NCBI GenBank assembly: GCA_965224705.1 | Contig: OZ245056.1 | Span: 2,464,001-2,528,000, forward strand | Source of the DNA: Spirochaetaceae bacterium | GTDB taxonomy: Bacteria; Spirochaetota; Spirochaetia; DSM-2461 | Direction: 5' to 3' | DNA length: 64,000 nucleotides | Part shown: positions 11,463 to 34,401 of the stretch, in pieces | Position numbering within the stretch: position 1 is the stretch's first letter | Layout of the letters: each line of letters begins with the position of its first letter | The notes under the pieces: generated by a model | Database searches by the model: none | What the model was told of the DNA's origin: nothing | What the model saw: only the letters and a program-made list of their open reading frames with translations | Position numbers and translations under genes: made by a program

Positions 11463-12782
11463 TCATAAGATTTCTGCATGCTCATCAATGATGCGGATGT
11501 TTACAGCATTCCCGTTCACGAAGGGCATGGCTTTAATGTTTTCAAATGCTCTTGTGATATCTTTCACCCTGGCTTCATGGGTAGTAAGGACAACCGGGAC
11601 ACAATCCCCCTCGTGATATTCTTTTTGTACAAAAGAATTAAGGCTTATATTTCTTTCAGCCATTTCAGTTGCGATTTTCGCAACAACACCACTTTTGTCC
11701 TCTACATCGAAACGCAGATAATGTCGGTGGGTGGTGTTCTGCATATCAGCCAGTTTTATCGGCTCATGTTGATCTGGCCAGAGAGGTAGCTTCTGAAACA
11801 GAACAGGCCAGGTTCCTATGACAATGGAGAGAATATCCGATACAGTAGCAGAGGCTGTGGGGTTTCCACCAGCACCCCTGCCATAGTACATGGTATGCCC
11901 TACGGCATTGCCATAGACACTTATCGCATTGAATGGCCCTGAAACAAAGGCAAGAGGGTGGTCGTCAGGGAGAAATACAGGTTTGACCGCCATTTCCAGA
12001 CCCTGATTGGACCGGCGGGCAAAGGCAATGAGTTTGAGAATGTAACCAAGTTCCCTGCCCGTGGTTACATCGAATAAATCAAGATTATCTATTCCTTCAA
12101 CAGGTATGGCATTCAGGGGAATAATCCCGCCGAATGCAAGAGATGCCAGCAGGGTGAGTTTGTGAGCTGCATCGGTTCCATTAACATCCAGTGCGGGATC
12201 GGCTTCTGCAAGTCCATCAGCCTGGGCCTGTCTGAGGGCTTCCTCATAGGTTTTTCCGTGTTCCACCATTTCGGTCAATATGAAATTAGATGTTCCATTG
12301 ACGATACCATATAAGGCGTCGTTTGTGTTGGCTGACAATCCATCGCTCAGAGCTTTTATTACAGGTATTCCACCGGCACAGCAGGCTTCCATTCCAATGC
12401 TGACATTGTTTTCCCGTGCCAGTTCAAAGAGTTCTGTGCCGTGATGGGCCAGGAGGGCCTTGTTCGCCGTTACTACGTGTTTTCCCGCTTTTAATGACTT
12501 TTCAATTATGTTTTTTGCATGGGTGACTCCTCCGACAGTTTCCACTACGAGGTGAATAGAGTCATCTGCCAGAACTTCATCCAGGTTTCTCGTGAACAGG
12601 TTTTCGTCAAGGCCAGCTTCCCTGGCTTTGTTAAATGTTACACTGATCAGGGCTTTGATGACCAGTTTTCTCCCCGTCAAATTATTGAAGCGTTCACTGT
12701 TTTCGTTTAACAAAGCTGCAGTAGCATTGCCGACTGTACCGCATCCTGCAATGGCTATACCAAATTCTTGAGAATTCTCCAT
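11463..12782 (-). CDS. hom: Homoserine dehydrogenase with ACT domain
   Basis: GCGTVG, VVTANKA, GGIPVI, NGTSNFIL, GRGAG motifs; GGAGG before ATG 12782. Confidence 0.95.
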   Translation of the reverse strand: MENSQEFGIAIAGCGTVGNATAALLNENSERFNNLTGRKLVIKALISVTFNKAREAGLDENLFTRNLDEVLADDSIHLVVETVGGVTHAKNIIEKSLKAGKHVVTANKALLAHHGTELFELARENNVSIGMEACCAGGIPVIKALSDGLSANTNDALYGIVNGTSNFILTEMVEHGKTYEEALRQAQADGLAEADPALDVNGTDAAHKLTLLASLAFGGIIPLNAIPVEGIDNLDLFDVTTGRELGYILKLIAFARRSNQGLEMAVKPVFLPDDHPLAFVSGPFNAISVYGNAVGHTMYYGRGAGGNPTASATVSDILSIVIGTWPVLFQKLPLWPDQHEPIKLADMQNTTHRHYLRFDVEDKSGVVAKIATEMAERNISLNSFVQKEYHEGDCVPVVLTTHEARVKDITRAFENIKAMPFVNGNAVNIRIIDEHAEIL

Positions 12783-12969
12783 AATACCTCCATGGTGATT
12801 TGAAAGAATGAATGAAGGTGAAATCTTTTTCAAGAGGTTTTATCCCTGAATTAGAAGGATGATGACTGGTTCTCATGTGCAAAACAATGCAAGGGTTGAC
12901 ATGAATTTATGATTTTTTTAGGATTCAGTGACAACTAGAAAATCCAGGATTATGATTACAGGAGCTGAT

Positions 12970-20029: not shown

Positions 20030-21367
20030 TTATTGCTTTACCGTCCTGACACGTCCGACAGACTCCAGGGAGTCTGCGAAACTGGCCATCACCTGAATTG
20101 CTTTCCGGTAGTGTTCTTTCTCCAATGCAGTCATAAAGGTAGTTCCGGATGTGCGATGGGAGGCGAATACCGGCGCGATACTCTGTTCAGCCATTCTGGT
20201 CAGCACAGCAGGGATGAGAGCTGCTTCATCTCCAAGATTCTCACCCACCGCCCCGACTATACAGAGGTCCGACCGTTTCTCAACCTCACTTAGATGCAGA
20301 TCTTCCTTCATGGTATCAATATCTCCATCCCCAGGATTCCGATTTTCAAGGGGTTCCAGAATGACCAGAAGTGTATCACACTGGCATGCTGAATACAAAA
20401 TTTTCCATCCCATCGCGGCCAAACTCTCCAGGATTTTCAACTGTAGAGAAAGGTTGTCCCCCAGATGGGCATTCTGAAATCGACAGACGGATACACCCAT
20501 CTTTCCGGCAACCCCGGTAATTCCCGGATGGGACTTCCTTTTTTTAATCACGATCATGGTTCCCGGAGCTTCGGGGATATTGGTATTCCGGATATTGATT
20601 GGAATTCCGGCGGTGCTGACAGGCTGAATAGCCTCTTCATGAAACACTTTTGCCCCCAGGGCCGAAAGTTCGCGAAGTTCCCTGAAAGAAACCTCTTCTA
20701 TGGGAGCAGGATCATCCACGATGCCGGGATCCGCTGCCAGCAGTCCCGATACATCGGTCCAGTTTTCATAAACCCGGGCCCCTGCGCCACGAGCTATCAC
20801 AGCACCGCTGATGTCGGACCCGCCGCGGCTGAAGGCCTTTATACCCCCTCTGGCATCCTGACCATAGAATCCTGGAATAACCACCTGGCTGTCGGGGGAA
20901 ACAGCCTGATCGATCAGTTTGTAGCTCTCCGACGAAAGTTTCCCCCGGGCATCAAATCGGATGATTTCTTCGGCATCCAGGAAGGAAAATCCAATGTATT
21001 CGGCAATGAGGCGGGCCAAAAAATGCTCCCCCCTGGATACGGCATAGTCATAGGATTTTTCACTCTGAATCCGGTCTTGAGCCTGATCAAGAAGCTCTTT
21101 CAGTCCTGAGCCAACTTTCAGATCGGCGGCTATCTCCAGAAATCTCTCACGGATGGGCTCAAAGTCTGCTTCAATTGACTTCTCCCTCACAGCAGCCTGG
21201 TAACAGGCGATTAAACGGTCGGTTATCTTTACATCGTTTCTGGTCCGCTTTCCTGGTGCCGATACAACGATCAATCGTCGCTCATTGTCTGATTGGACAA
21301 TGTCGGCACTTTTTTTTATTTGATCTGCCGACGCCAGAGAGGTTCCGCCGAATTTGACAACTTTCAT
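20030..21367 (-). CDS. Aspartate kinase (YclM/AKIII-like) with divergent ACT region
   Basis: KFGGTSLA, VVSAPGK, SRGE, FSRGGSD, ENWTDV motifs. Confidence 0.93.
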   Translation of the reverse strand: MKVVKFGGTSLASADQIKKSADIVQSDNERRLIVVSAPGKRTRNDVKITDRLIACYQAAVREKSIEADFEPIRERFLEIAADLKVGSGLKELLDQAQDRIQSEKSYDYAVSRGEHFLARLIAEYIGFSFLDAEEIIRFDARGKLSSESYKLIDQAVSPDSQVVIPGFYGQDARGGIKAFSRGGSDISGAVIARGAGARVYENWTDVSGLLAADPGIVDDPAPIEEVSFRELRELSALGAKVFHEEAIQPVSTAGIPINIRNTNIPEAPGTMIVIKKRKSHPGITGVAGKMGVSVCRFQNAHLGDNLSLQLKILESLAAMGWKILYSACQCDTLLVILEPLENRNPGDGDIDTMKEDLHLSEVEKRSDLCIVGAVGENLGDEAALIPAVLTRMAEQSIAPVFASHRTSGTTFMTALEKEHYRKAIQVMASFADSLESVGRVRTVKQ

Positions 21368-21375
21368 AGCATCCT

Positions 21376-22557
21376 CTACTTGATGAATAGTTTTTGTGGG
21401 TATTCGATAAGCTTTTCACAGCCTGTTTCGGTAACAAGAAGGGGTTCGGAACACTCCACACCGCAGGTATCCAGCCAGATTCCCGGCATGAAGTGAATCG
21501 TCATCCCCGGTTTCAATACAGTTTTATCCCCTGGACGAAGGCTCAGGGTATGCTCCCCCCAGTCCGGGACATAGTTCAGACCAAAGGAATAGCCCACTCG
21601 AGAGGGTTTCTCAATACCCGTTCCGGCAAGATAACTGCGCCATTTCTCCTCCACCTCTTCGGCGGTAACTCCGGGTTTAATGAAATCCAGCGTTCCATTC
21701 AATCCCCTTATGACGGTATCCGAAATCCGCTGCAGATCCTCCGGCGGCTTTCCCAGGTAGAGAGTACGCGACAGCGGTACATTGTAGTGGTGACGGGCCC
21801 CCGCCAGTTCCAACAGCACTACATCTCCCTTTTGATAGTTTCTGTCTGGATTAAAGGTTAGATGGGCGGTACTTGTTCTCTCTGCCGTTGGCATTATGGG
21901 AAAGAGAGCCGTGGGATCTCCGCCGAATTCCCCGGTTCCCCAAATCTGAGCCTTCGCAACATTCGCCGCTGCGTCTTTTTCAGGAACTCCAGGGGCAATA
22001 CTTTCGACGGCCGCATCCATCACTTTCCTGCAGATTTCACTGGCCTCCCGGATTACGGCGATTTCCGCAGGTGATTTAATTGTTTTTATCCAGTTCACCA
22101 ACCCGGTGGCATCCATCTTCCTTGAGTGGGGGAGTTCTTCTTCCAGCTGGGTGTACATCCTGGCGTTGAACCAGTAGCCATCCATGTCTAAACCCATAGT
22201 CCGTTTTTCCCACCGCCTTTCTTTGATTATTTCCGCCACGTAGCTCATTGTATGAATATATCGGGATTGTACATATTCATCCCTGTATCCCCATATATGA
22301 TCCTGGGGAAGAAAAGACGTAATCCGGGCCCCATTGGAATCCTGCTCCCGGCCAAACCAGTGGGGAGTATCATCATCCAGTGAAAGGAGGAGCCCCTGAT
22401 GGACATAGAAACTCCAGCCATCATAACCGGAAAGATAGTTCATCTGCCCAGGATCGGTGATCAGGAGTATTTCTATTCCCCGGTGATCCATGGACTGCTG
22501 GGTAAGTCGAATTCGCTGTTTGTATTCCTCCACACCGAAGACAGTCTGATTTCTCAT
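21376..22557 (-). CDS. eutD: Ectoine hydrolase DoeA/EutD-like (M24), paralogue B
   Basis: MNYLSGYDGWSFYVHQ, AHLT, RVGYSFGLNYVPDWGE motifs. Confidence 0.85.
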   Translation of the reverse strand: MRNQTVFGVEEYKQRIRLTQQSMDHRGIEILLITDPGQMNYLSGYDGWSFYVHQGLLLSLDDDTPHWFGREQDSNGARITSFLPQDHIWGYRDEYVQSRYIHTMSYVAEIIKERRWEKRTMGLDMDGYWFNARMYTQLEEELPHSRKMDATGLVNWIKTIKSPAEIAVIREASEICRKVMDAAVESIAPGVPEKDAAANVAKAQIWGTGEFGGDPTALFPIMPTAERTSTAHLTFNPDRNYQKGDVVLLELAGARHHYNVPLSRTLYLGKPPEDLQRISDTVIRGLNGTLDFIKPGVTAEEVEEKWRSYLAGTGIEKPSRVGYSFGLNYVPDWGEHTLSLRPGDKTVLKPGMTIHFMPGIWLDTCGVECSEPLLVTETGCEKLIEYPQKLFIK

Positions 22558-22566
22558 TTGACCTTC

Positions 22567-23562
22567 CTAACGGGGAATCTGGATTCCGATTCCCCGCTCC
22601 CTGGCAAGTTTGCAGGCGCCCAGGGCAATCATTGTATCCTGCACACCAACCCCGGTCAGGTCGCAAACGGTGAAGTCATCTTCATTGGTTCGCCCGGGAT
22701 GGACTCCATCGATGAAGGTTCCCAATTCAGTCATGGGGGAGTCAGCGGTGAGAATTCCCTGCTCGACGGCAGATCGAACTTCGCCCAGACGCAGAGCCTG
22801 GCTTTTCATGTCACAGGCCAGAAGGTCAGCCCTGGCAAGTACCTCTGCTTCCAGTTCCTGTTTCTCTTCCGTGTCACTTCCCATGGCGGTGATGTGGAGG
22901 TTGGGGTGGATCCAGTCGGCCTTGATAAAACCCTCGCGGGCAGGGGTGGTGGTTACAACAACCTGACTTTCCCTCACCACCTCTTCTGCGGTGGTACTCT
23001 TAATAACCGTTACTCCCAGTTCAGATTCCATATCGTTGACATAGGCATTCTTCACATCCTCATTGCTTGAAGAATACATTCGGATTGTTTTTATGTCACG
23101 CATTAAAGCCAGGCCCCGCATCTGCCAGCGTGCCTGGGCTCCGGCTCCGATGACTCCAGCCTGACTGGCGTTTTCAGGGGCCAGGTATTCAGCGGCAATT
23201 GCTCCGGCTGCGCCTGTCCGGACATGGGTGAGATAGCCATTATCCAGTAAAACAGCATCGAGAAAACCAGTCTCTGCGGAAACAACCAGCATGAGACCGC
23301 TTCCTGAAGGAAGACCCAGTCGGGAATTCTGGAAAAAACCGGAAGCAACTTTGACGGCCATTCTGTCCATGCCCTTGATGAAGGCACTTTTTATATCAAC
23401 TTCACCCTGTTTTTCATCGACCGGAAGCATCATAATGGGGGGAACAATTGCATTTCCCCTCTGTAGTTCCTTGAATCCGAGGGCTGTATTTTCTACCACG
23501 GCATGATCCAGTTTGACCAGATCCATCAGTTCTTTCTCATTGACTATAATGATAGGTTCCAT
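22567..23562 (-). CDS. eutC: Cyclodeaminase, ectoine utilisation EutC
   Basis: GEVDIKSA, KVASGFF.N..GLPS, DNGYLT.VRT.AAG, DLTGVGVQD motifs; eut context. Confidence 0.9.
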   Translation of the reverse strand: MEPIIIVNEKELMDLVKLDHAVVENTALGFKELQRGNAIVPPIMMLPVDEKQGEVDIKSAFIKGMDRMAVKVASGFFQNSRLGLPSGSGLMLVVSAETGFLDAVLLDNGYLTHVRTGAAGAIAAEYLAPENASQAGVIGAGAQARWQMRGLALMRDIKTIRMYSSSNEDVKNAYVNDMESELGVTVIKSTTAEEVVRESQVVVTTTPAREGFIKADWIHPNLHITAMGSDTEEKQELEAEVLARADLLACDMKSQALRLGEVRSAVEQGILTADSPMTELGTFIDGVHPGRTNEDDFTVCDLTGVGVQDTMIALGACKLARERGIGIQIPR

Positions 23563-23571
23563 CTTCTCCTC

Positions 23572-24552
23572 CTATATATGTTTTGAAATAATACTGCGGT
23601 AACGGGCAGGATCGACACTGCTGCCGCTTATGACCAGGCCGACCTTCCTGTTCGTCACATCCAATTTTCCGGTTTGTACAGCTGCAATTCCCACCGCCGA
23701 AGCTCCTTCAATCACAAGGCTGTGTTCCGTAAAGGCGTATACCATACCCACTTCAATTTCCTCTTCGGTGATCACTATGTGATCATCTACAAACTTTTGA
23801 ATCAGAGGAAGAGTGTAGTTGTTTTCAATACCAATTCCGCCAAGCAGAGAGTCGGCATGCGTGTCTTTTTCCTCCACCTGCACCGGTTTTCCGGCCTTTA
23901 AACTCTCCAGCATGGCAGGAGAACGTTTTATTGTAACACCGACAATTCTTATGGAAGGTTTTATGGTTTTGGCCGCCAGGGCAATTCCCGCCAGAAGTCC
24001 GCCACCGGAGAGCGGCACCAGAATAACATCCATATCAGGCTCAGCCTGGAGCATTTCCAGAACGGTGGTTCCCTGTCCCGATACAATGGCAGGATCGTCA
24101 AAGGGGACTACCGGTATGTACTCCTCCTTTTCCATCAGCTCAAAGTAACGGCCCTCCGCTTCATCCTGGCAGGAACCGAATATCTCTACGTCTGCACCGA
24201 GGGCTTTAATCTTTTTCACCCGGTACTCGGGAACATTCTGCGAAAGACAAACCACCGCCCTGACACCTGTTTTTCCGGCAGCGAAGGAAACCGCTTTTCC
24301 ATGGTTTCCCGTGGAGAAGGTAATAACTCCACGCTGCCTCTCTTTTTCATTGAGGGATAGAATTTTATTGGCCGCCCCCCTTATCTTGAATGAGCCGGTA
24401 TTCTGGAGGCATTCAAGTTTCATAAAAATCTGATCCGCTCCCATGCTGTCTGCCAGGGCAGGCGATTCCCAGAGCGGTGTCTCCCAGATCATTGTCTTTA
24501 TTCTTTTTTTTGCCCTGTAGACATCCTCCAGGGTCGGCAGCCTGTGCTCCAC
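23572..24552 (-). CDS. eutB: PLP dehydratase, hydroxyectoine utilisation EutB
   Basis: GSFKIRGA, STGNHG, LSGGGL, ADSLLGGIG motifs; GTG 24552 after AGGAG. Confidence 0.9.
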   Translation of the reverse strand: MEHRLPTLEDVYRAKKRIKTMIWETPLWESPALADSMGADQIFMKLECLQNTGSFKIRGAANKILSLNEKERQRGVITFSTGNHGKAVSFAAGKTGVRAVVCLSQNVPEYRVKKIKALGADVEIFGSCQDEAEGRYFELMEKEEYIPVVPFDDPAIVSGQGTTVLEMLQAEPDMDVILVPLSGGGLLAGIALAAKTIKPSIRIVGVTIKRSPAMLESLKAGKPVQVEEKDTHADSLLGGIGIENNYTLPLIQKFVDDHIVITEEEIEVGMVYAFTEHSLVIEGASAVGIAAVQTGKLDVTNRKVGLVISGSSVDPARYRSIISKHI

Positions 24553-24563
24553 TGCAGGAACTC

Positions 24564-25742
24564 CTATTTGGTGAAGATATCCATGGGGTATTCGAAAAGC
24601 TGCATACATCCCTCTTCAGTGACGATGAGGCTGGCATCAATTTCGAATCCAACATCCTCAAACCAGATGCCGGGTATCAGATGAAGGGCCATATTGGGTT
24701 TTAATACAGTTTTATCGCCGGGGCGGATACTGATTGTGTGCTCACCCCAGTCGGGAGGATAGTTGACACCTATGGAGTATCCTAAACGGGATTCTTTCAC
24801 AACTGTTGAGCCGCTGATGGCCTTCCGCCATCCTGCTTCCACCTCTTCAGCGGTGACTCCGGGCTTGATAAGCTCAAGAGTTTTTAAGAGACCATCGATA
24901 ACCACCGCTGCGGTATCCTTCATCAGTTGAGGCGGCTCGGGACCCAGAAAAATGGTTCTGGCAATGGGGCAGTGGTAGTGCCTGTAACACCCCGCCAGTT
25001 CCAGCAAACAGGCCTCATTCTCCTTGAAGGTCGCATCCGACCAGGTAAGGTGGGGAGTCTTTGTGGCTTCACCGGCCATTATGAGGGGTACGATGGCGGG
25101 ATAATCTCCGCCAAACTCCCTGGTTCCCGTGTATTCGGCCTGGACAATGGCGGCGGCGGCATCACACTCACGCACCCCAACATTGATACTTGAAATGGCT
25201 GCATCCATCACTTTTTCGGCAATATTGCCAGCCCGGTGCATCATTTCTATCTCAGCATCTGACTTAATCACCCTTACCCAGTTCACCAGGGCATTGGCAT
25301 TTTTCAACGTTCCCCGGGGCAGATCCTTTTCCAATTCCACATAACACTGGTGGGTGAAGAAAAACTGGTCCGATTCCACACCAATAATCCTGTTATCCCA
25401 CCCCTTTTCCCTTATCACGTCCGCCACAAAATTCATGGGATGTTTCACCAGGGAGTGAACATAGTCATCGGCGTAGCGGCGAATGTTATCTTTGGAGAGG
25501 AAGGTGGTGATGTCCGCCCCATTGCCGTCCATCTCCCGTCCCAGCCACATGGGTTCATCCTGGTCCAGAGAAACCAGAACCCCCTGGTGAACATAGAAAC
25601 TCCAGCCATCGTAGCCGGTAAGGTAGTTCATATTGGCAGGATGACTCACCAGAAGAAGATCAATCCCCCATGCAGACATTGATTCTTTGGTCGCCCTCAC
25701 TCTACGGGCATATTCTTCACGCGTGAATACTGGCATATGCAT
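24564..25742 (-). CDS. eutD: Ectoine hydrolase DoeA/EutD (M24), paralogue A
   Basis: NMNYLTGYDGWSFYVHQ, GGDYPAIVP, PHLTW, RLGYSIGVNYPPDWGE motifs. Confidence 0.9.
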   Translation of the reverse strand: MHMPVFTREEYARRVRATKESMSAWGIDLLLVSHPANMNYLTGYDGWSFYVHQGVLVSLDQDEPMWLGREMDGNGADITTFLSKDNIRRYADDYVHSLVKHPMNFVADVIREKGWDNRIIGVESDQFFFTHQCYVELEKDLPRGTLKNANALVNWVRVIKSDAEIEMMHRAGNIAEKVMDAAISSINVGVRECDAAAAIVQAEYTGTREFGGDYPAIVPLIMAGEATKTPHLTWSDATFKENEACLLELAGCYRHYHCPIARTIFLGPEPPQLMKDTAAVVIDGLLKTLELIKPGVTAEEVEAGWRKAISGSTVVKESRLGYSIGVNYPPDWGEHTISIRPGDKTVLKPNMALHLIPGIWFEDVGFEIDASLIVTEEGCMQLFEYPMDIFTK

Positions 25743-25778
25743 CTCCTTTCCCTGTATGGTGACTGTTGAACAGCATGG

Positions 25779-26519
25779 CTACATAAATCCGTTATATTGA
25801 CGGGGGACCACGGCGGAATAGACATAATCTATCATCGTGTGATAGTCAAAGACCGGTAAACCTGTGGCCTCCCTGACAGCCCTGGCATAGGGTGGGAGGA
25901 GGCTGCACTCAAGAAGGATCATCTCCACCCGGGGATCAGATTCAACAATCCGCTCTGCCTCCACCACCACCTCCTTCTCAATACGGTTCTGATCGAGATA
26001 GCCTGCCTCATTAAAAACCGCCTCATGAAAGTGTTCCGATTTCTCAAGTCCCCTCATCACCAGATCGGAACCATCCTTGATCCCAATCTGCCGCAGAATG
26101 AAATCATCCAGGGAAGGAAGATTGGCGGTAATAACCCCAATTTTTCCCTTTCGTGAAAGCATCATGCGCATGAATGGGATTTGAAGCAGGCTGGAGAGGA
26201 ATACAGGAATTTTTACGGCTTCCTGGATATCCCTTTGGAAAAGTGCCATGAATCCGCAGTCTCCTGTGATTGCTCTGACACCTTCGGTCTCCAACTCCCG
26301 TGCTCCCTTTTTAAGGCTTTCGACCAGACTCATATCGTGCTCCATGATTCTGGCAACCGAAAAACCAGGGATTCGCTGAAATCTCACAGGATAATCATAG
26401 CTTGTGGCGTTGGCGACATCCCCGGGTATGAAGGGAACGTAGTTTTCCAATAGAATGATACCAATGGCCTCGCCATAACTGAGCTGCCCGGGTTTTACTT
26501 TATATACCATATCAATCAA
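25779..26519 (-). CDS. Asp/Glu racemase superfamily protein
   Basis: PGDVANA, ITGDCGF, SSLLQ, LECS.LPPY, GLPVFD; two-Cys pattern. Confidence 0.8.
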   Translation of the reverse strand: MIDMVYKVKPGQLSYGEAIGIILLENYVPFIPGDVANATSYDYPVRFQRIPGFSVARIMEHDMSLVESLKKGARELETEGVRAITGDCGFMALFQRDIQEAVKIPVFLSSLLQIPFMRMMLSRKGKIGVITANLPSLDDFILRQIGIKDGSDLVMRGLEKSEHFHEAVFNEAGYLDQNRIEKEVVVEAERIVESDPRVEMILLECSLLPPYARAVREATGLPVFDYHTMIDYVYSAVVPRQYNGFM

Positions 26520-26525
26520 CCAGCT

Positions 26526-27806
26526 TTAACGCACAAATGCATGATTGGGCAGCCAGGTGGCAATTCCCGGGAAGAAAATCAGCAGAGCAGTAGCCAGAAG
26601 GAGGATCATGATGAAGGGTGGTGTATTCTTGATGACTTCAAAATAAGGCCGCCGGAATACTAGCTGGGCCGTAAAAATATCACACCCAAAGGGTGGCGTG
26701 GCCGATCCAATCGCTGCCTGAAGGGTAACAATGGTTCCAAGGAGAACGGGGTCAACCCCTGTGGAAATTACATAGGGCTGAAAGATCGGGCTCAATACAT
26801 AGATCGCCACTATGGGATCGACAAACATACAGGCCACGAAGTAAGCCGCCGCTATGGTGAAAATCAACTGGAGCTGACCAGGATCAGTCCCCAGTATAAC
26901 AGGCATAATTGCCTGGGGGATCCTTAAAAAGCTGATAAGCCAGGAAAATGCCTGTCCCGCTCCAACCAGAACAAACACAACTCCGGTGATAACTCCTGTA
27001 TCCATCAGGATCTTCACCAGTTTCTTGAAACTGAGGGTACGATAGACCAGACCTTCAAGAAGAAGCGCATAGAGTACGGCTACCGCCGCCGCTTCGGTGG
27101 GACTGAATATTCCCGCATAGATTCCGCCGACGATGATCAGGGGAAATCCGAGTACCAGTATCCCCTGTTTTACAGCCTTCCAGCGTTCTGCCCAGGAGGC
27201 CCGGGGTATGACTCCTACTTTTTTTATTCGGGAGTAGAAGTAGCAGTAAACCGAAAAAAGTAAGAAAATCATAAGTCCCGGGATAATACCTGCCAGAAAG
27301 AGCTTCCCCACAGATGTGGAGGTGACGACTCCATACACGATGAATCCAATGCTTGGAGGAATTAAAAAGGCGATGTCACTGGAATTGATTATCAAACCCA
27401 GGGTAAATGAGCTTTCATAGCCTGCCTTTAAAAGCATGGGCCGCATGGTTCCGCCAATGGCAGCCACCGTTGCCTGAGTAGAACCGGAAACCGCTCCAAA
27501 GAGGGTACAACTGGCATTTGTGGTAATTGGGAGTCCGCCGTGGATATGACCCACGAAAGATTTTACCATATTAATCAGCCGGGAAGCCACCTGACCGGAG
27601 GTGATGATACTCGCTCCCAGGATGAACATGGGAACACAAACTAATGCGGGAGGAGAAATCCCCGTCAATACCTGCTGAACCAGGACCTGCATGTTGAAAG
27701 TGGGGATGTTGATTTCCAGGTGCAGCAGCAGCGATCCAAGAATGACAACCATAAAGGGAAATCCCAGAAGGAGCATCCCTACCATGCTTATCCAGAGCAA
27801 ATTCAT
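26526..27806 (-). CDS. TRAP transporter large permease (DctM, TeaC/UehC-like)
   Basis: GGL..FGAVSGS, LIPPSI, TPPFG motifs; about 12 TM segments. Confidence 0.93.
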   Translation of the reverse strand: MNLLWISMVGMLLLGFPFMVVILGSLLLHLEINIPTFNMQVLVQQVLTGISPPALVCVPMFILGASIITSGQVASRLINMVKSFVGHIHGGLPITTNASCTLFGAVSGSTQATVAAIGGTMRPMLLKAGYESSFTLGLIINSSDIAFLIPPSIGFIVYGVVTSTSVGKLFLAGIIPGLMIFLLFSVYCYFYSRIKKVGVIPRASWAERWKAVKQGILVLGFPLIIVGGIYAGIFSPTEAAAVAVLYALLLEGLVYRTLSFKKLVKILMDTGVITGVVFVLVGAGQAFSWLISFLRIPQAIMPVILGTDPGQLQLIFTIAAAYFVACMFVDPIVAIYVLSPIFQPYVISTGVDPVLLGTIVTLQAAIGSATPPFGCDIFTAQLVFRRPYFEVIKNTPPFIMILLLATALLIFFPGIATWLPNHAFVR

Positions 27807-28393
27807 ATCTCTACCTCCTGGTAGTCGAGTTCCTCTTCATAATCACTCTGCTGCTCCGGTGAAAGCCATACACTTTTCTCAACAATGTTTTTAGCAAAGG
27901 TTCTTACATATTGGATGCCTGCGGAAAAGAACCCGATGGGGGTGATGATCAGGGGAATCCAGGAGGGGATTCGGAGGGCAGAACTCTCCTGTCCCAGCTC
28001 AAACACCTTGGCCATATATTGGAAGGAGTGGAATGCCATTATGAACATCACTATGGCACTGACGGCTGATATCACGAAAATAAAAACCTTTTCCACCTTC
28101 TCGTTCATTAGATCCAGAAAGGCTCCCATTCGTATATGCCGTGCTTTTCTGGCGGCGTAGCTTATCCCCACGAAGGTGGTGAAAATGATGAGGAATTCAG
28201 ATACCTCATCGGCAAAATAAATGGCCTGGAAGAAGGTTCGGGCGATAACGTTACTGATTAACAGAATCGCAAGGAAGCTGATACAGAGACAGAGGGCCCC
28301 CACTTCAAAGGCATCCACACCTCGTCCCAAATAATGGAAAAACCCTCTCTTCCGTTCTTTACTCTCGTCGTTTGAAGTATTTTCGATATCCAT
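27803..28393 (-). CDS. TRAP transporter small permease (DctQ, TeaB/UehB-like)
   Basis: NVIAR..DEVS..G.SYAARKARHIRM; 4 TM segments. Confidence 0.9.
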   Translation of the reverse strand: MDIENTSNDESKERKRGFFHYLGRGVDAFEVGALCLCISFLAILLISNVIARTFFQAIYFADEVSEFLIIFTTFVGISYAARKARHIRMGAFLDLMNEKVEKVFIFVISAVSAIVMFIMAFHSFQYMAKVFELGQESSALRIPSWIPLIITPIGFFSAGIQYVRTFAKNIVEKSVWLSPEQQSDYEEELDYQEVEI

Positions 28394-28452
28394 ACTGTCC
28401 CCTGTATTGAGTAACGAAACGACAGACCATGCCGCCGTTCCGTTAGAAATTA

Positions 28453-29541
28453 CTATTTGATGCCCAGGGCTGCCTTGGCATCCGCGATGTCTTTTAGAAG
28501 TGTGTCCAGCACCAGCTGCGCATCACTGCCACCCATTTCAACATACTTTGGATAAACAGTTTCTGCAGCGGCCTTGAATTCGGCGATGGTTTCGTCATCA
28601 AACTCATGGAACTCAATGGAAGGCTTATCCGCCATGATCGCCGCTTTTGCCCTGGCATTTACATCGTCGATCCATTGAGCAGAGGGAATAACCGCATCGG
28701 CCCAGAATTTCTTCATATGATCCTGCTGCTCCCTGGTCAGAGAGTCGAAAAAGGCGGCATTGGCCGTAGGAATTCCAAGAAAAGGTTCGGCCCAGAATTG
28801 CGTGAAGTAGTCGGTCACTTCGTAGAACTTCATAGAGTGATCGGCAAACAGGGGGTTCACCTGGGCATCAATGAGACCGGTCTGCAAGGCACCGTAAACC
28901 TCACCGTAACTCATGGGAGTGGGGCTCATGCCATAGGCACGGAAGTCTTCGATAAGGATTTTAGAACCCATGAGACGGGTTTTCATTCCCTGGAGGTCGT
29001 CCATTCCCTTTACTTCGGCTTTGGAAGTCATCCACTGCCACCCTTCGTAAACTATTCCTAAAGGAACCAGGTCATTTTCACGGAATTTTTCCTCGATAAG
29101 AGGCATGAATTTACCATTCTTCAAAACCCACTGGAGGGTTTCAGGCATTTTTTCCCTGGGCCAGAGATAGTGAAGGGCAAGGACCTGTACCTGGGGAACG
29201 AAGCTCGAAATCCAGGCGTAGTCGGAGAATACGAATTCCACCACGCCGAGCTGTGCCAACTCATTGATATCCCTGGTATCTCCAAGGGATCCGTAGGGGT
29301 AAACGGTGATGTCGATCTTTTCATCGGTGTTTTCCCTCATGTAGTCTGCGAATTTCTCCGCCCAGACGGTCATGAAGTCCCCTTCAATTTCTTCAGAAGC
29401 AAGTTTGGCTTCTATTACATCACTGTCACCCGCGTCACCCGCAGTCTCTTCCTGCCCGGCAGCAAAAAGACCATGACTCAAACAAATCAGAGCCAAAATC
29501 ATTGTTAAACTGATAATCTTTGTAAACATAGTTTTCTCCAT
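28453..29541 (-). CDS. TRAP substrate-binding protein (DctP, TeaA/UehA-like)
   Basis: Signal peptide; EEIEG, YPYGSLG, R.M.S, EVYGALQTG..DAQVNP, FYEV motifs. Confidence 0.9.
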   Translation of the reverse strand: MEKTMFTKIISLTMILALICLSHGLFAAGQEETAGDAGDSDVIEAKLASEEIEGDFMTVWAEKFADYMRENTDEKIDITVYPYGSLGDTRDINELAQLGVVEFVFSDYAWISSFVPQVQVLALHYLWPREKMPETLQWVLKNGKFMPLIEEKFRENDLVPLGIVYEGWQWMTSKAEVKGMDDLQGMKTRLMGSKILIEDFRAYGMSPTPMSYGEVYGALQTGLIDAQVNPLFADHSMKFYEVTDYFTQFWAEPFLGIPTANAAFFDSLTREQQDHMKKFWADAVIPSAQWIDDVNARAKAAIMADKPSIEFHEFDDETIAEFKAAAETVYPKYVEMGGSDAQLVLDTLLKDIADAKAALGIK

Positions 29542-29608
29542 TTCTTATTTGCGAGAGGGGTCAATCCTCTCTTCCGACTTTTCCTGAATCATTCCAGGCT
29601 GTTTCAGT

Positions 29609-30805
29609 TCAATCATTACCTCCTTTTTTTAAATACTCTATTGCCGTTCTTACGAAGAACTCAACTCCCAGAACCATGACATCCTCATCAATATTGAATC
29701 GAGCATTGTGATGGGGGAAATCAGTACCTTTCTTTCTATCAGCAGCTCCGAGAAAGGCAAAAACAGAGGGAACTCGAGAAGAAAAGGCCGAGAAATCCTC
29801 ACCTGCCATGGAGGCATGTTCTACCACCCTGTCAACTCCCCCCAATATCTTCTCCGCTATTCCACGGCTGAGGGCTGCCATCTTTACATCATTGATCACC
29901 GAGCAGTTTTCCTGTTTCAGTTCCACTTCAATTGTACAGCCATGGACAGCGGCGACTTTCTGTGCCAGATCCATCAATTTATCCGATGGACTGGAGCCGT
30001 TTTCCGGTTCATCGGCATAGAGGTAGCGAATTGATCCTTCCAGAACCACTTTGTCGGGGATAATATTGTTCTTTGAGCCGCCCTTGATGACACTGAACAT
30101 CAAGACCGTAGGATTCATGAGGCTGATTTCCCGGGTCTGAATTCTCTGGGCGGTCAGGACAATGTCAGAGGCAGCGATGATCGGGTCAATGGCGGTTTCG
30201 GGGTAGCCGGTGTGGCCGCCGTATCCTTTGACCGTCATCTTAAACACATCCATACTGGCCATAACTGCTCCGGCCTTGATTCCCATGGTTCCACTGGGAA
30301 GGGAGGTCCAGATATGGAGGCCCAGGGCTGCATGGGGGGAGGGATTTTTCATCACTCCATGCTCAACCATGAGTTCAGCTCCCGCAACCTCTTCGTTAGG
30401 TTCAAAGACAAACTTGACAGAACCCTCCAGAACCTCACGGAATTCACAGAGAACTTTGGCGGCGATCAACAGCATAGCCGTATGGGCATCATGACCACAG
30501 GCGTGCATTTTTCCGGGTATTTCAGACTTATAGGGAACGTCATTCTCCTCCTGTACCGGCAGTGCGTCCATGTCCGCCCGCAAAAGGAGTACCGGACTGG
30601 AGAGCTTTCCCTCAAGAACGGCTGTAATACCGGTGCCGGCTATTCGCCTGGGTTCCAATCCGAGATCCTTCAGGTAGGATTCAACGATCCCGGAGGTTCG
30701 ATGCTCCTCAAATCCCAATTCAGGATAACGGTGAAAGTCCCTCCTTAGCTCTATAAGTTCCTTTTCCAGCTCCCTGATGCGTTTTCGGATAGGGTCCCCG
30801 TCCAT
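29609..30805 (-). CDS. M20 family amidohydrolase (candidate N-acetyl-DABA deacetylase)
   Basis: HRYPELGFEE, LRADMDAL, MHACGHD, GGH, GEDF, HH..F motifs. Confidence 0.85.
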   Translation of the reverse strand: MDGDPIRKRIRELEKELIELRRDFHRYPELGFEEHRTSGIVESYLKDLGLEPRRIAGTGITAVLEGKLSSPVLLLRADMDALPVQEENDVPYKSEIPGKMHACGHDAHTAMLLIAAKVLCEFREVLEGSVKFVFEPNEEVAGAELMVEHGVMKNPSPHAALGLHIWTSLPSGTMGIKAGAVMASMDVFKMTVKGYGGHTGYPETAIDPIIAASDIVLTAQRIQTREISLMNPTVLMFSVIKGGSKNNIIPDKVVLEGSIRYLYADEPENGSSPSDKLMDLAQKVAAVHGCTIEVELKQENCSVINDVKMAALSRGIAEKILGGVDRVVEHASMAGEDFSAFSSRVPSVFAFLGAADRKKGTDFPHHNARFNIDEDVMVLGVEFFVRTAIEYLKKGGND

Positions 30806-30808
30806 AGG

Positions 30809-31834
30809 CTATAGTAAATCTCTTTCTACAAGGGTTTCGACGATCTGAATGGCATTGAGAGCTGCTCCCTTGCGTACATTATTGGAAACAATCCACAGAT
30901 TGAGCCCATTTTCAATGGAAGAATCCTCTCGAATGCGTCCTACCAGGGTTTCATCCACATCGGTGCAGAATAGAGGCATGGGGTAGAGATTTTTTGCGGG
31001 ATCATCCTGAAGAATGATACTGGGAGCGTTTTTCAGGAGTTCCCGGGCCCTCTCTCGAGAGATATTTTTTTCGGTCTCAATGTTGACAGATTCGGAATGT
31101 CCCACCGCTACAGGAATTCGAACACAGGTGGCGGTTACCTTGATGTTTTCATCACCCATGATTTTTCGGGTTTCAAATATCATTTTATTCTCTTCTTTAG
31201 TGTATCCCCCATCCTGAAAGACATCAATGTGGGGGATGGCGTTAAAGCCCAGTTGATAGGTAAACCCTTTAGAATCCTGAATCTTTCTGGTTTTCAGGAA
31301 TTGTTCACTTTCATCATATAGAGAGTCGATTCCCTTCTTACCGGCACCGGCAGCGGCCTGGCAGGTGGACACAACCACCCTTTTAATCCTTCCTTCGTCA
31401 TGAAGGGGCTTTAATACAACCACCATCTGAATTGTGGAACAGTTGGGGTTGGCTATGATTCCTTTATGCCAGTCAAGATCCTGGGGGTTTACCTCGGGAA
31501 CCACCAGGGGACATTGATCGTCCATCCGCCAGGCAGAACTATTGTCGACTACAATGGCACCCATCTCGACTGCATCTGGAGCCAGGGCTTCACTGGCCGC
31601 CCCACCGGCGGAGAAAATGGCGATATCGATGTCCTTGAAGTTGTCTTTCTTTGCCTCTTTTACCTTACAGGGCCTGCCGTTAAACAGGATTTCTTTTCCA
31701 GCATTCATCGCCACATCCAGGGGGCGGAATTCTGTCACCGGAAAATTTCTCCTTTCCAGAGTTCGTATCATTTCACCGCCCACAAGTCCCATGGCTCCCA
31801 CAACGGCTATGTTGTAAGCTGTTTTCTTTTTCAT
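30809..31834 (-). CDS. asd: Aspartate-semialdehyde dehydrogenase (phosphorylating)
   Basis: GAMGLVG, DNSSAWRM, VPEVN, NPNCSTIQ, CVRIPV..GHS, KGAALNA motifs. Confidence 0.95.
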   Translation of the reverse strand: MKKKTAYNIAVVGAMGLVGGEMIRTLERRNFPVTEFRPLDVAMNAGKEILFNGRPCKVKEAKKDNFKDIDIAIFSAGGAASEALAPDAVEMGAIVVDNSSAWRMDDQCPLVVPEVNPQDLDWHKGIIANPNCSTIQMVVVLKPLHDEGRIKRVVVSTCQAAAGAGKKGIDSLYDESEQFLKTRKIQDSKGFTYQLGFNAIPHIDVFQDGGYTKEENKMIFETRKIMGDENIKVTATCVRIPVAVGHSESVNIETEKNISRERARELLKNAPSIILQDDPAKNLYPMPLFCTDVDETLVGRIREDSSIENGLNLWIVSNNVRKGAALNAIQIVETLVERDLL

Positions 31835-31841
31835 TAAGACT

Positions 31842-33236
31842 TCATACCTCCTCCAGGGGAAGCTTTTTCGCTTCAATGTCCTGAATGACACTGGCGATAA
31901 TCTCTATACCCTTCATTAGAAGCTCTTCCGTTATTACCAGAGGCGGTAACAAACGGGCTACGTTGGAATGGTGTCCGCCAACCTCAATCATAACACCCCT
32001 CTGATGGGCGTATTTCCGAATCATTCTGGCGTAGTTTTTGGCAGGCTCTTTTGTGGCCCTGTCCATGACCATTTCGATGGCAATCATAAGGCCGATGCCC
32101 CTGACTTCCCCAACGATGGAACTGGAAGATTCCAGTTCCTTAAGTCTGGCCGTGGCTTTCGTACCAAGATCGAAGGCTCTTTGAGGAATCTCATTTTCCT
32201 TTATCCATTCAATTGCCGCCGTACCCGCGGCAAAGGCAACCATGTTTCCCCGGAAGGTTCCAATGGTTTTTCCGGGGGGCCAGGTATTGTATTTTTCCCG
32301 GTAGGCAATGGCAGAGATGGGAAAACCAACACCGCCCATGGCTTTACTGATGGTGACAACATCGGGAACGATGTCGAAATGCTCAAAGGCAAACATCTTC
32401 CCTGTTCGTCCGATGCCGGCCTGAATTTCATCGCAGATCATGAGAATATCATGTTTATCACAGATCTCTCTGACTCTTTTCATAAACCGGGTGGTGGGAA
32501 TGATGGTTCCCCCCTCGCCCTGTACTGATTCAAGGATAACCGCCGCAGGCCTGGAGTAACCGGAGTGGGAATCGGAGAGGACACGTTCCAGGTTTTCGGC
32601 GGCCTGGAGGTCAACATTTTCATCGGGACAGCCAAAGGGATTGCGATAGACATAGGGATAGGGAATGAACTGAATCCCGGGAACAAGCTGACCCAGACCA
32701 TCACGGTGACTGGAATCAGTGGTCAATGCCAGAGATGTTCCGGTCATACCGTGGTAGGCACCTTCAAAGGCGATGATTCCATTTCTCCCTGTGTACCATC
32801 TGGCCAGTTTAATCGCCTGTTCTACCGCATCTGAGCCCGTGGGTCCGCCAAAAAAGAGACGAGTCAGTTCAGGGGGGAGGTTGGCTTTGAGAACCTCCAC
32901 CATCTTTCGGCGGGCAGTGGTGGGTATGTCCAGCGTATGGGTTATCTCATCAATCTGCCGATGAGCGGCTGCCAGTACATCGGGATGGCCATGTCCCACT
33001 GCCATGACTCCAGCTCCTCCGAACAAGTCGATGAAGATGTTCCCATCGACATCTTTCAAGGTGGCTCCCTTACCGCTTTGAAGGGCCATGGGCATTCCTT
33101 TTGAATAGGATACGGCAGAACTCTCATTTCTGTTCTGATACTCCAGAATCTCTCTTGATTGTTTTCCCGGGGGGATTTCGTGGATTACCGGCGCATTTTC
33201 CCAGGATAGTTTTGCCAATTCTTTTTCGCTAATCAT
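31842..33236 (-). CDS. Class III aminotransferase, diaminobutyrate transaminase (Dat/EctB-like)
   Basis: HTLD, GPTGSDAVE.AIKL, YHGMT, VQGEGG, DEIQAG.GRTG, SKA, GTFRGN motifs. Confidence 0.85.
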   Translation of the reverse strand: MISEKELAKLSWENAPVIHEIPPGKQSREILEYQNRNESSAVSYSKGMPMALQSGKGATLKDVDGNIFIDLFGGAGVMAVGHGHPDVLAAAHRQIDEITHTLDIPTTARRKMVEVLKANLPPELTRLFFGGPTGSDAVEQAIKLARWYTGRNGIIAFEGAYHGMTGTSLALTTDSSHRDGLGQLVPGIQFIPYPYVYRNPFGCPDENVDLQAAENLERVLSDSHSGYSRPAAVILESVQGEGGTIIPTTRFMKRVREICDKHDILMICDEIQAGIGRTGKMFAFEHFDIVPDVVTISKAMGGVGFPISAIAYREKYNTWPPGKTIGTFRGNMVAFAAGTAAIEWIKENEIPQRAFDLGTKATARLKELESSSSIVGEVRGIGLMIAIEMVMDRATKEPAKNYARMIRKYAHQRGVMIEVGGHHSNVARLLPPLVITEELLMKGIEIIASVIQDIEAKKLPLEEV

Positions 33237-33336
33237 CTGATTAACCTCCGTTGATTATTATTACCTATCTCTCAGCGGCTGAACCCTTCGAGGGGTATAC
33301 GATGTCGTTTGGCGAAATTCTCTTCGCCGGGAAGAA

Positions 33337-34131
33337 CTATTGGTTCTCCCCCCTTCCCAGCAGTTTCGATATTCTATTTGCCGCCTCCATGACGGGTTGT
33401 GAAAGCTCTTTGATTCGATCCTCAGTTAACCGCATGGCTGGACCGGAAGTCGAAATGGTGGCTACTATCTCATTGCGGAAGTTGAATATAGGTGCCGCCA
33501 CACTGTTGAGTTCCTCACCAAATTCTCCAATTTCTGCGGCGTATCCATTCTGTCTCACCTCTTCCAGAGCTGACCGGAACTGTTTTTTGTCGACAATTGT
33601 TTTAGTTGATACCTGTTCCATCGGAAGTTCATCCAGAAGAGCTTCACACTCTTCCCTATCCATGAAGGCAAGTATCGTCTTTCCAGAGGCGCAGCTGTTA
33701 ATTGGATAGGAATAGGTCACATCAGGATTAAGGACAAGATGATGAGTGCTTCTTACCTCATCAATGGCAATTATCATACTCTCAGCCATAACATTGACAT
33801 AAATATTCTCACCTGCAATCTTCTCCAATTGCAGCATCACCGGTTTTGCCACATTGCGAAGGTTTCGGCTGATGGGCACGGAACTTCCCAATTGAAAGAC
33901 CTTGAAGGTAAGACAGTATCCCCGTTCAGTCTTTTCCACATAGCCTGTCTTCGTGAATGTTGCTAGAAATCGGTGCACATTGGTCCGGGTAAATCCAAGT
34001 CCCTTAACCATGGCCGATGGTTGAACGGGCTGATGAGAGCCTATGAACTCCAGCAGGTCAAGCCCCTTGATAATGGTTGTGGAAAGGGCATATGTACCAA
34101 TATTTGTACGCACGTTACAATCTTGAGACAT
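33337..34131 (-). CDS. IclR family transcriptional regulator
   Basis: N-terminal HTH; ASGK..LA, VR..GYA..E, VAAPI, S.SGP..R motifs. Confidence 0.92.
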   Translation of the reverse strand: MSQDCNVRTNIGTYALSTTIIKGLDLLEFIGSHQPVQPSAMVKGLGFTRTNVHRFLATFTKTGYVEKTERGYCLTFKVFQLGSSVPISRNLRNVAKPVMLQLEKIAGENIYVNVMAESMIIAIDEVRSTHHLVLNPDVTYSYPINSCASGKTILAFMDREECEALLDELPMEQVSTKTIVDKKQFRSALEEVRQNGYAAEIGEFGEELNSVAAPIFNFRNEIVATISTSGPAMRLTEDRIKELSQPVMEAANRISKLLGRGENQ

Positions 34132-34401
34132 AAATTATATATAACCCTTACTCTTAAAAATGTCAATACAGATCTTTAATAATTTTTCTTTTTGTTAATA
34201 TACATCCATCGTCCACCTGGAAGAAGGTAAACAAATCCATGAAACCTGTGTGAAATTGATTCAGGGGAGTTTCAATTGATTCCAGATATTGGCGAATTGG
34301 CGGAAAGACCTGGCAAAGGCCCCGGAGCTATCCAGAGGAAGTTTAAACGTAATCTGGTTTTGTGATTGACTTTTATTCTAATCCAATGTACATCTTACCT
34401 G

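Follow-up and report, generated by a model that had tools for sequence, protein, structure and literature searches.

We describe here a gene cluster of the ectoine-catabolic kind in a stretch of 64,000 nucleotides (the window) from a Spirochaetaceae bacterium (assembly GCA_965224705.1, contig OZ245056.1, positions 2,464,001 to 2,528,000), whose genome, called G000 below, is 3.0 Mb long, in one contig and 95% complete. The cluster is composed of 13 genes, all on the minus strand, running from 34131 down to 20030 with intergenic distances of -46 to 100 nt. Families were assigned by NCBIfam and Pfam profile scans of the window proteins, scores being compared to the family cut-offs, and all the gene labels, the order and the common orientation given in the original prediction were recovered. 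The cluster is not a chance arrangement, as the same gene order recurs in other spirochaetes. It is a variant of the known ectoine catabolic pathway, with a real gene set. From first to last, its genes are:

33337..34131, minus strand: IclR-family regulator (PF01614 and PF09339), which replaces EnuR/AsnC and heads the cluster in relatives too.
31842..33236, minus strand: 2,4-diaminobutyrate (DABA) transaminase, Dat/EctB-like, class III (TIGR00709, 403.8 bits for a cut-off of 401.6).
30809..31834, minus strand: phosphorylating aspartate-semialdehyde dehydrogenase, Asd, with an NAD-type loop (asd_B above cut-off; Met15, Asp40, Val41, Met43).
29609..30805, minus strand: M20 amidohydrolase (TIGR01891), whose place after asd is conserved.
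28453..29541, minus strand: solute-binding protein of a TRAP transporter (tripartite ATP-independent periplasmic), UehA/TeaA-like (closest PDB entries 3fxb, 2vpn and 3gyy, E 1e-45 to 1e-41).
27803..28393, minus strand: TRAP small permease DctQ (PF04290).
26526..27806, minus strand: TRAP large permease DctM (TIGR00786, over cut-off).
25779..26519, minus strand: Asp/Glu/hydantoin-racemase-like protein, PRK07475, with two Cys (88, 205).
24564..25742, minus strand: EutD/DoeA-like ectoine hydrolase 1, M24 (TIGR02993, 456 bits; best PDB entry 6twk, E 2e-107).
23572..24609, minus strand: EutB-like pyridoxal-phosphate-dependent dehydratase of the hydroxyectoine branch (NF005680, 404.5 for a cut-off of 413); its true start may be slightly downstream of the called one.
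22567..23562, minus strand: EutC-like cyclodeaminase/imine reductase (NF006141, 418 for a cut-off of 408; TIGR02992, 345).
21376..22557, minus strand: EutD/DoeA-like hydrolase 2, M24 (417 bits), 51% identical to copy 1.
20030..21367, minus strand: aspartate kinase, Ask, of PRK09034 type with an eroded ACT region, 8 nt after eutD2; the only aspartate kinase of the genome.

Ectoine is an osmolyte widespread in saline habitats. Its known breakdown, as described in PMC3187862, PMC5924519, PMC7192451 and PMC8739950, uses the aldehyde dehydrogenase (ALDH) DoeC/Ssd. The window cluster resembles the canonical Eut/Doe systems in TRAP uptake, EutD, EutB, EutC, the class III transaminase and aspartate as the putative end product (PMC3187862, PMC5924519, PMC8739950), but is without the ALDH, the AstE-type EutE and EnuR/AsnC, and has instead Asd, Ask, an M20 enzyme, IclR, PRK07475 and a second EutD. 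The predicted lack of ALDH, AstE-type EutE/DoeB, EctA and EctC holds for the cluster in the NCBIfam and Pfam scans, which detect no EnuR/AsnC regulator in it either; EctA and AstE were looked for within the cluster only. EctC (PF06339) gives no match in G000, while the same search gives four strong matches among the 201 Spirochaetia genomes of our class sample, which counts against a trio of ask, asd and transaminase genes that makes ectoine. Among the matches listed, no ALDH is found in the spirochaete cluster loci or in 120 metagenome loci. G000 has three full ALDHs, whose best models are GucD, AldA-like and ExaC and in no case that of succinate-semialdehyde dehydrogenase; they have no ortholog above 40% identity in five other cluster genomes. 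The GucD-like one lies with a large hypothetical gene and a dipeptidase-like gene (L001, G000 842522-848001), possibly another osmolyte-degrading set.

The operon Asd differs from its relatives in its cofactor loop. In a 2gyy-based alignment with the aspartate-semialdehyde dehydrogenase (ASADH) of Streptococcus pneumoniae, Thr11, Ala36, Ser37 and Arg39 become Met15, Asp40, Val41 and Met43 (GATG...YLASARSAG versus GAMG...RPLDVAMNAG in the window). Ser37 and Arg39 are described as anchoring the adenine of NADP in the S. pneumoniae enzyme, and Arg, Thr and Ser as holding the 2'-phosphate in other ASADHs (PMC3276109). This 2'-phosphate site for NADP(H) (Thr, Ser, Arg) is missing from the operon Asd, whose SGxG motif reads AGAG. 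Asp40 is the last residue of strand β2 in an AlphaFold2 model (pLDDT 94.7), the fold being that of S. pneumoniae ASADH (TM 0.95). An acidic residue at the end of β2 selects NAD in Rossmann folds, and the glyceraldehyde-3-phosphate dehydrogenase (GAPDH) of G000 carries the same Asp there. Among the 119 closest homologs, Asp40 is present in 118, Thr15 and Ser41 in none and Arg43 in three, while the catalytic and phosphate-binding residues R103, C132, Q159, K217 and R239 are kept in all 119 and H246 in 118. Judged from the loop residues and from the position of Asp40 in the model, the cofactor site of the operon Asd looks rebuilt for NAD+.

A second asd of G000, outside the operon, keeps the Thr/Ser/Arg NADP loop, as do the asd genes of two asd-dapA-dapB-ask operons. 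Three loci hold Asp-type and NADP-type genes side by side. The operon Asd is thus an added paralog and not a replacement.

The operon Ask, of the Clostridium acetobutylicum 3tvi type, keeps the catalytic motifs of the kinase. It gives no Pfam ACT match, although the region still aligns to 3tvi, with the PSGVD and DQGSSE motifs changed. Among 22 kinases of the Asd-neighbouring types, 17 give no ACT match over the cut-off, whereas all four housekeeping kinases used as controls, which come from other kinase subfamilies, give two strong matches. In a quick tree, the Asd-neighbouring kinases form two separate clades, each with 100% support. The pair as a whole shares fold, catalytic and phosphate-binding residues and kinase motifs with the NADP-dependent ASADH of the S. 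pneumoniae 2gz1 branch and the 3tvi-type kinase, and differs from them by the β2-end Asp, the lack of Thr11/Ser37/Arg39 equivalents, the eroded ACT motifs and the proposed reverse direction.

The pairing of this Asd with a kinase is recurrent, although related genomes do not count as independent cases. In the class sample, searched for Asd at E <= 1e-95 (a threshold that would miss canonical asd_B), Asp-type Asd is found in 28 of the 201 genomes, all 31 copies having the Asp, and a partner kinase is present in 28/28. The gene adjoins that of a DABA transaminase in 21 genomes (69-83% identity to the window transaminase in the 20 others), the kinase gene being in the cluster or at its end in 15 of them, a few kb upstream in two and on another contig in four. 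eutD is present in 1/38 genomes of the order and 4/401 of the phylum sample. Of seven loci from a scan of genome contigs, one has the complete cluster with ask, three stop before ask and three are partial. A motif scan of metagenomes gave at least 120 loci, some of them near-duplicates, 80 with flanks and 76 with an Asd reading-frame match. The flanks are 10 kb long and may cut off a terminal ask, and the metagenome kinase counts are therefore lower bounds: where a locus spans 5 kb or more, which holds for 47, a kinase is present in at least 25. Among the matches listed, these 47 divide into 21 with ectoine-type genes, 13 with a thiamine-diphosphate (ThDP) enzyme and/or aminotransferase and 13 with neither. 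An independent layout, ehuB..ehuA-dat-asd-ask-eutA-like-fumarate reductase-like, is seen in three loci, two of which are nearly the same, and its Ehu subunits score over their cut-offs; other loci read dat-asd-ask-eutB-eutC. Tepidanaerobacter, Clostridia and spirochaetes are among the named carriers in these Asd clusters, and a protein labelled as the Asd of Sediminispirochaeta smaragdinae (P0011) has the Asp loop as well; the genome survey was confined to the Spirochaetota samples and two Bacillota genomes, which were found to hold canonical asd only.

From the gene content, the residue changes, the co-occurrence and the absence of DoeC, we infer the following route, in which ectoine would be taken up by the TRAP transporter, as the UehA/TeaA-like binding protein suggests, and its ring opened by EutD to N-acetyl-DABA, a reaction shown for homologs. 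The M20 enzyme, judged by its position, is likely the N-acetyl-DABA deacetylase in place of EutE/DoeB and would release acetate to leave DABA, while EutB, EutC and the racemase-like protein would process the hydroxy branch, hydroxyectoine being probably a substrate too. The transaminase, at family level, would convert DABA and 2-oxoglutarate to aspartate semialdehyde and Glu. The operon Asd would then oxidise aspartate semialdehyde with NAD+ and phosphate to aspartyl phosphate and NADH, and Ask would use this aspartyl phosphate to phosphorylate ADP, which would yield aspartate and one ATP. Asd thus probably runs backwards together with the kinase. When ectoine is absent, the same kinase and the separate NADP-type Asd would serve biosynthesis. 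We hold this reading, namely import and breakdown of ectoine with an oxidative Asd and ATP made by a kinase shared with biosynthesis, with moderate confidence. The logic is that of GAPDH and phosphoglycerate kinase, where NAD+-linked oxidation of an aldehyde to an acyl phosphate is followed by a kinase that makes ATP. The dehydrogenases are homologous; the substrate here would be aspartate semialdehyde.

The physiology of the host is compatible with such a route. COX1 is absent from G000 and from four other cluster genomes (5/5), and the host, thus without a haem-copper oxidase, may be a strict anaerobe. NADH-dependent [FeFe] hydrogenase, succinate dehydrogenase, citrate synthase, GTP-dependent phosphoenolpyruvate carboxykinase (PEPCK), Pta and an aspartate-aminotransferase-like gene, all found in G000, would suffice for the further metabolism of aspartate and NADH.

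Several results weigh against this reading, mostly through the kinase. The operon ask encodes the sole aspartate kinase of G000, the sixth PF00696 match being ArgA, and G000 has hom, thrC, dapA, a dapB-like gene and lysA. In the sister genome G037, about 12.5 kb of the operon is gone; a fragment of eutD2 remains, and so does a complete ask, which is 89.5% identical and under purifying selection (dN/dS 0.18, for 0.04-0.19 in six flanking genes). G035 and G036 have Asp-type asd and ask only, orthologs of eutD and of the transaminase gene both being absent; in tree topology, their Asd falls close to that of the window. The PRK09034-type kinase is found in 60/201 class genomes, that is 25/28 with Asp-type Asd (the remaining three having a short kinase directly after asd) and also 35/173 without, and its gene frequently occupies a resident position next to msmX; the three clusters ending without ask are those of Sphaerochaetaceae. 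On the dehydrogenase side, some Asp-type asd genes adjoin dapA/dapB, with these genes near at least five metagenome loci, and an NADH-using Asd is reported to be able to drive lysine synthesis (PMC13577085). As an NADH-using Asd can also work forward, NAD preference does not fix the direction, which is the main cause for caution.

Because the kinase is the only one, the downstream biosynthetic genes are present and ask is kept in G037 after loss of the operon, Ask is not dedicated to catabolism; it is thus a resident or captured gene, now also serving biosynthesis. The ectoine catabolism and the oxidative, phosphorylating Asd of the original prediction are supported, and a kinase reserved for catabolism is not. 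Sole copies of asd and ask, not induced by ectoine, had been named as contrary evidence: asd does have its second, NADP-type copy, and ask has none. The support for catabolism and for the oxidative Asd step is stronger than before, owing to the NAD-type loop, the second NADP-type asd, the lack of ectC, the lack of ALDH in related loci and the repeated pairing with kinases.

Around the kinase and its pathway, the sole homoserine dehydrogenase gene of G000 lies in the window 7 kb from the operon (11463-12833, minus strand). In larger relatives, kinase genes lie next to thrC and next to the other asd, neither of which is the case in G000, and some other cluster genomes also carry ThrA-size kinases. 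In G037, the relic consists of two eutD2 pieces fused in frame, immediately upstream of ask (L084:10226-11436).

One alternative is that ectoine is taken up chiefly for its nitrogen and to supply aspartate semialdehyde to Lys, Thr and Met synthesis, Asd and Ask working forward with NADH as a biosynthetic pair that just happens to be located in the operon. It would account for the sole kinase with its complete downstream pathway and for ask in G037 and asd-ask in G035 and G036 without eut genes, and it fits the anabolic work reported for an NADH-using Asd. However, the pair would then make a product already supplied by the transaminase. G000, G035, G036 and the other genomes checked also retain a separate asd of the NADP type, and no other gene oxidising aspartate semialdehyde accompanies the operon. 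We therefore consider it unlikely, if the most serious competitor.

Alternatively, Asd could oxidise the semialdehyde without useful ATP conservation, the kinase being a passenger, with hydrolysis of the aspartyl phosphate or with the flux going through an unlinked ALDH. The three clusters without ask, the 4/21 genomes with ask on another contig, the resident msmX-linked position and the three full ALDHs of G000 fit such a scheme. It is nevertheless rather improbable, as a partner kinase accompanies Asp-type Asd in all 28 genomes that have it, the immediate neighbour in other lineages is a kinase of a second family, and the cluster genomes compared share no ALDH ortholog.

The substrate could also be a related N-acyl-DABA or cyclic amidine, processed by the same lower pathway. 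This would fit the two EutD-like proteins, divergent and both below the TIGR02993 cut-off of 613, and more generally the scores of EutD, EutB and EutC, below the ectoine-specific equivalog cut-offs, which also count against ectoine as substrate; it would fit, too, the racemase-like protein, which gives no match to the EutA model TIGR02990 and is a possible functional stand-in for EutA. Yet the H. elongata DoeA is the nearest PDB structure for both EutD copies, which keep the Tyr52, His238, Glu255 and Glu374 positions, presumably those with roles in EutD/DoeA. The binding protein is closest to 3fxb, 2vpn and 3gyy, which we take to be the ectoine binders UehA and TeaA, other DctP structures being mostly at 1e-27 or weaker, and this similarity points to an ectoine-type transporter. 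With Ehu subunits above cut-offs in the parallel layout, a substrate other than ectoine is quite improbable. Finally, that ask, asd and dat make DABA for ectoine or another product, ask-asd-ectB being a known ectoine biosynthetic trunk (PMC3187862), is highly improbable, given the lack of EctC and of an acetyltransferase in the cluster, the NAD-type loop and the co-encoded importer, hydrolases and deacylase.

Beyond ectoine, Asp-type Asd and the ACT-poor kinase could form a portable "reverse aspartate pathway" for substrate-level phosphorylation in anaerobes, set in at least three kinds of importer-bearing operons: (i) ectoine, with TRAP or the Ehu ABC transporter, (ii) ThDP enzyme and aminotransferase, with TAXI (a TRAP type) or ABC transporters, and (iii) DapA, DapB and amine oxidoreductase, with TAXI. 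We put this forward tentatively, both for the pathway and for the three kinds, and rate it at somewhat less than an even chance. The second kind comprises a TAXI-TRAP or ABC transporter, a regulator, a ThDP enzyme, a class I aminotransferase, Asp-type asd and ask (L293:604-7847 in G541, L089:650-9050 in G002, L210:6965-11882 in G143, L134 and L148); the G541 Asd is the nearest genome match to that of the window (79%). The third comprises a GntR-like regulator, dapA, a DapB that carries a kinase-type ACT region by fusion, an asd of the Asp type and a short ask, with glycine-oxidase/SoxA-like genes and a TAXI transporter (L296:1180-14361 in G545; also G582, G577 and G555). It could be the diaminopimelate trunk running backwards, or the DapB-ACT fusion could regulate the short kinase.

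If the proposed route is true, the phosphorylating Asd/Ask step gives a fermenter one ATP per ectoine, the ALDH route conserving none directly and hydrolytic acetate release yielding none either, and aspartate kinase would work as an ATP-forming enzyme. If the portable form is true, a one-way biosynthetic trunk becomes an ATP-yielding catabolic route and an anaerobic sink for ectoine is revealed. The single-residue NAD signature makes the route testable with three purified proteins and marks a large unannotated Asd clade, which offers natural NAD(H)-type enzymes for amino-acid engineering.

Putative two-eutD clusters without eutE/ssd have been reported in Thermodesulfobacteriota, and abgB-thrA-adh clusters in Bacillales (PMC13188858, 2026). 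The window cluster resembles them in its two eutD genes and lack of eutE/ssd, and the Bacillales form in its amidohydrolase. The main text of that paper has no mention of asd, aspartate kinase, Spirochaet or anaerob and no mechanism for the aspartate-semialdehyde step, although its Fig. 6 may label them. The doeBDAC genes of Methylomicrobium alcaliphilum are also comparable by a divergent DoeB (22% to that of H. elongata), but differ in that DoeC is kept, in an aerobe, with no transporter (PMC7192451). No paper proposing an ectoine route via reverse Asd/Ask was found in the literature covered, most subscription papers being outside it, nor equilibrium constants in the available text of PMC4669674.

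As to the M20 enzyme, the NCBIfam profile DoeB2, an M20 type to which we presume that the M. alcaliphilum DoeB belongs, gives 271 bits for a cut-off of 550. It was rejected as proof of function, since the M20 gene beside lysA scores 293 and the model does not discriminate. In two loci, a glutamate dehydrogenase gene lies between ask and the transaminase gene (L286:12068-13402, L287:3320-4657), and the enzyme could recycle 2-oxoglutarate.

Concerning expression, a promoter and terminator scan was at chance level (promoters 17 versus 16.2, terminators 15 versus 17.2) and thus gives no evidence of a promoter for ask inside the operon. By eye, though not in the list of the scan, TTGACA, TATATA 17 nt on and TATAAT 21 nt on abut the iclR ATG (window 34134-34166, minus strand); with promoter-like boxes directly before the ATG and no ribosome site, the transcript is possibly leaderless. 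Four mollusc metatranscriptome runs from one study gave short contigs over the cluster, with depth in 18, 13, 14 and 14 of 30 bins, and were left unused because such contigs neither show transcription nor rank genes.

Other loci show further arrangements. Genes similar to TfrAB (thiol:fumarate reductase, under cut-off) follow ask inside the Ehu-type ectoine cluster (L102:3896-7122, L153). In L137:409-4354, asd-ask is followed by a GTP-PEPCK gene, which fits aspartate to oxaloacetate to phosphoenolpyruvate (PEP). A third eutD lies with a racemase-like gene at a separate locus of G393 (L075:7841-9869). In G100, of another family, a solitary eutD is located close to an ALDH gene (L077:6379-10587). 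Finally, a protein of about 1000 residues with weak PEP-synthase similarity is encoded after dctM in some clusters (L128:8974-11949, L287:16445-19453).

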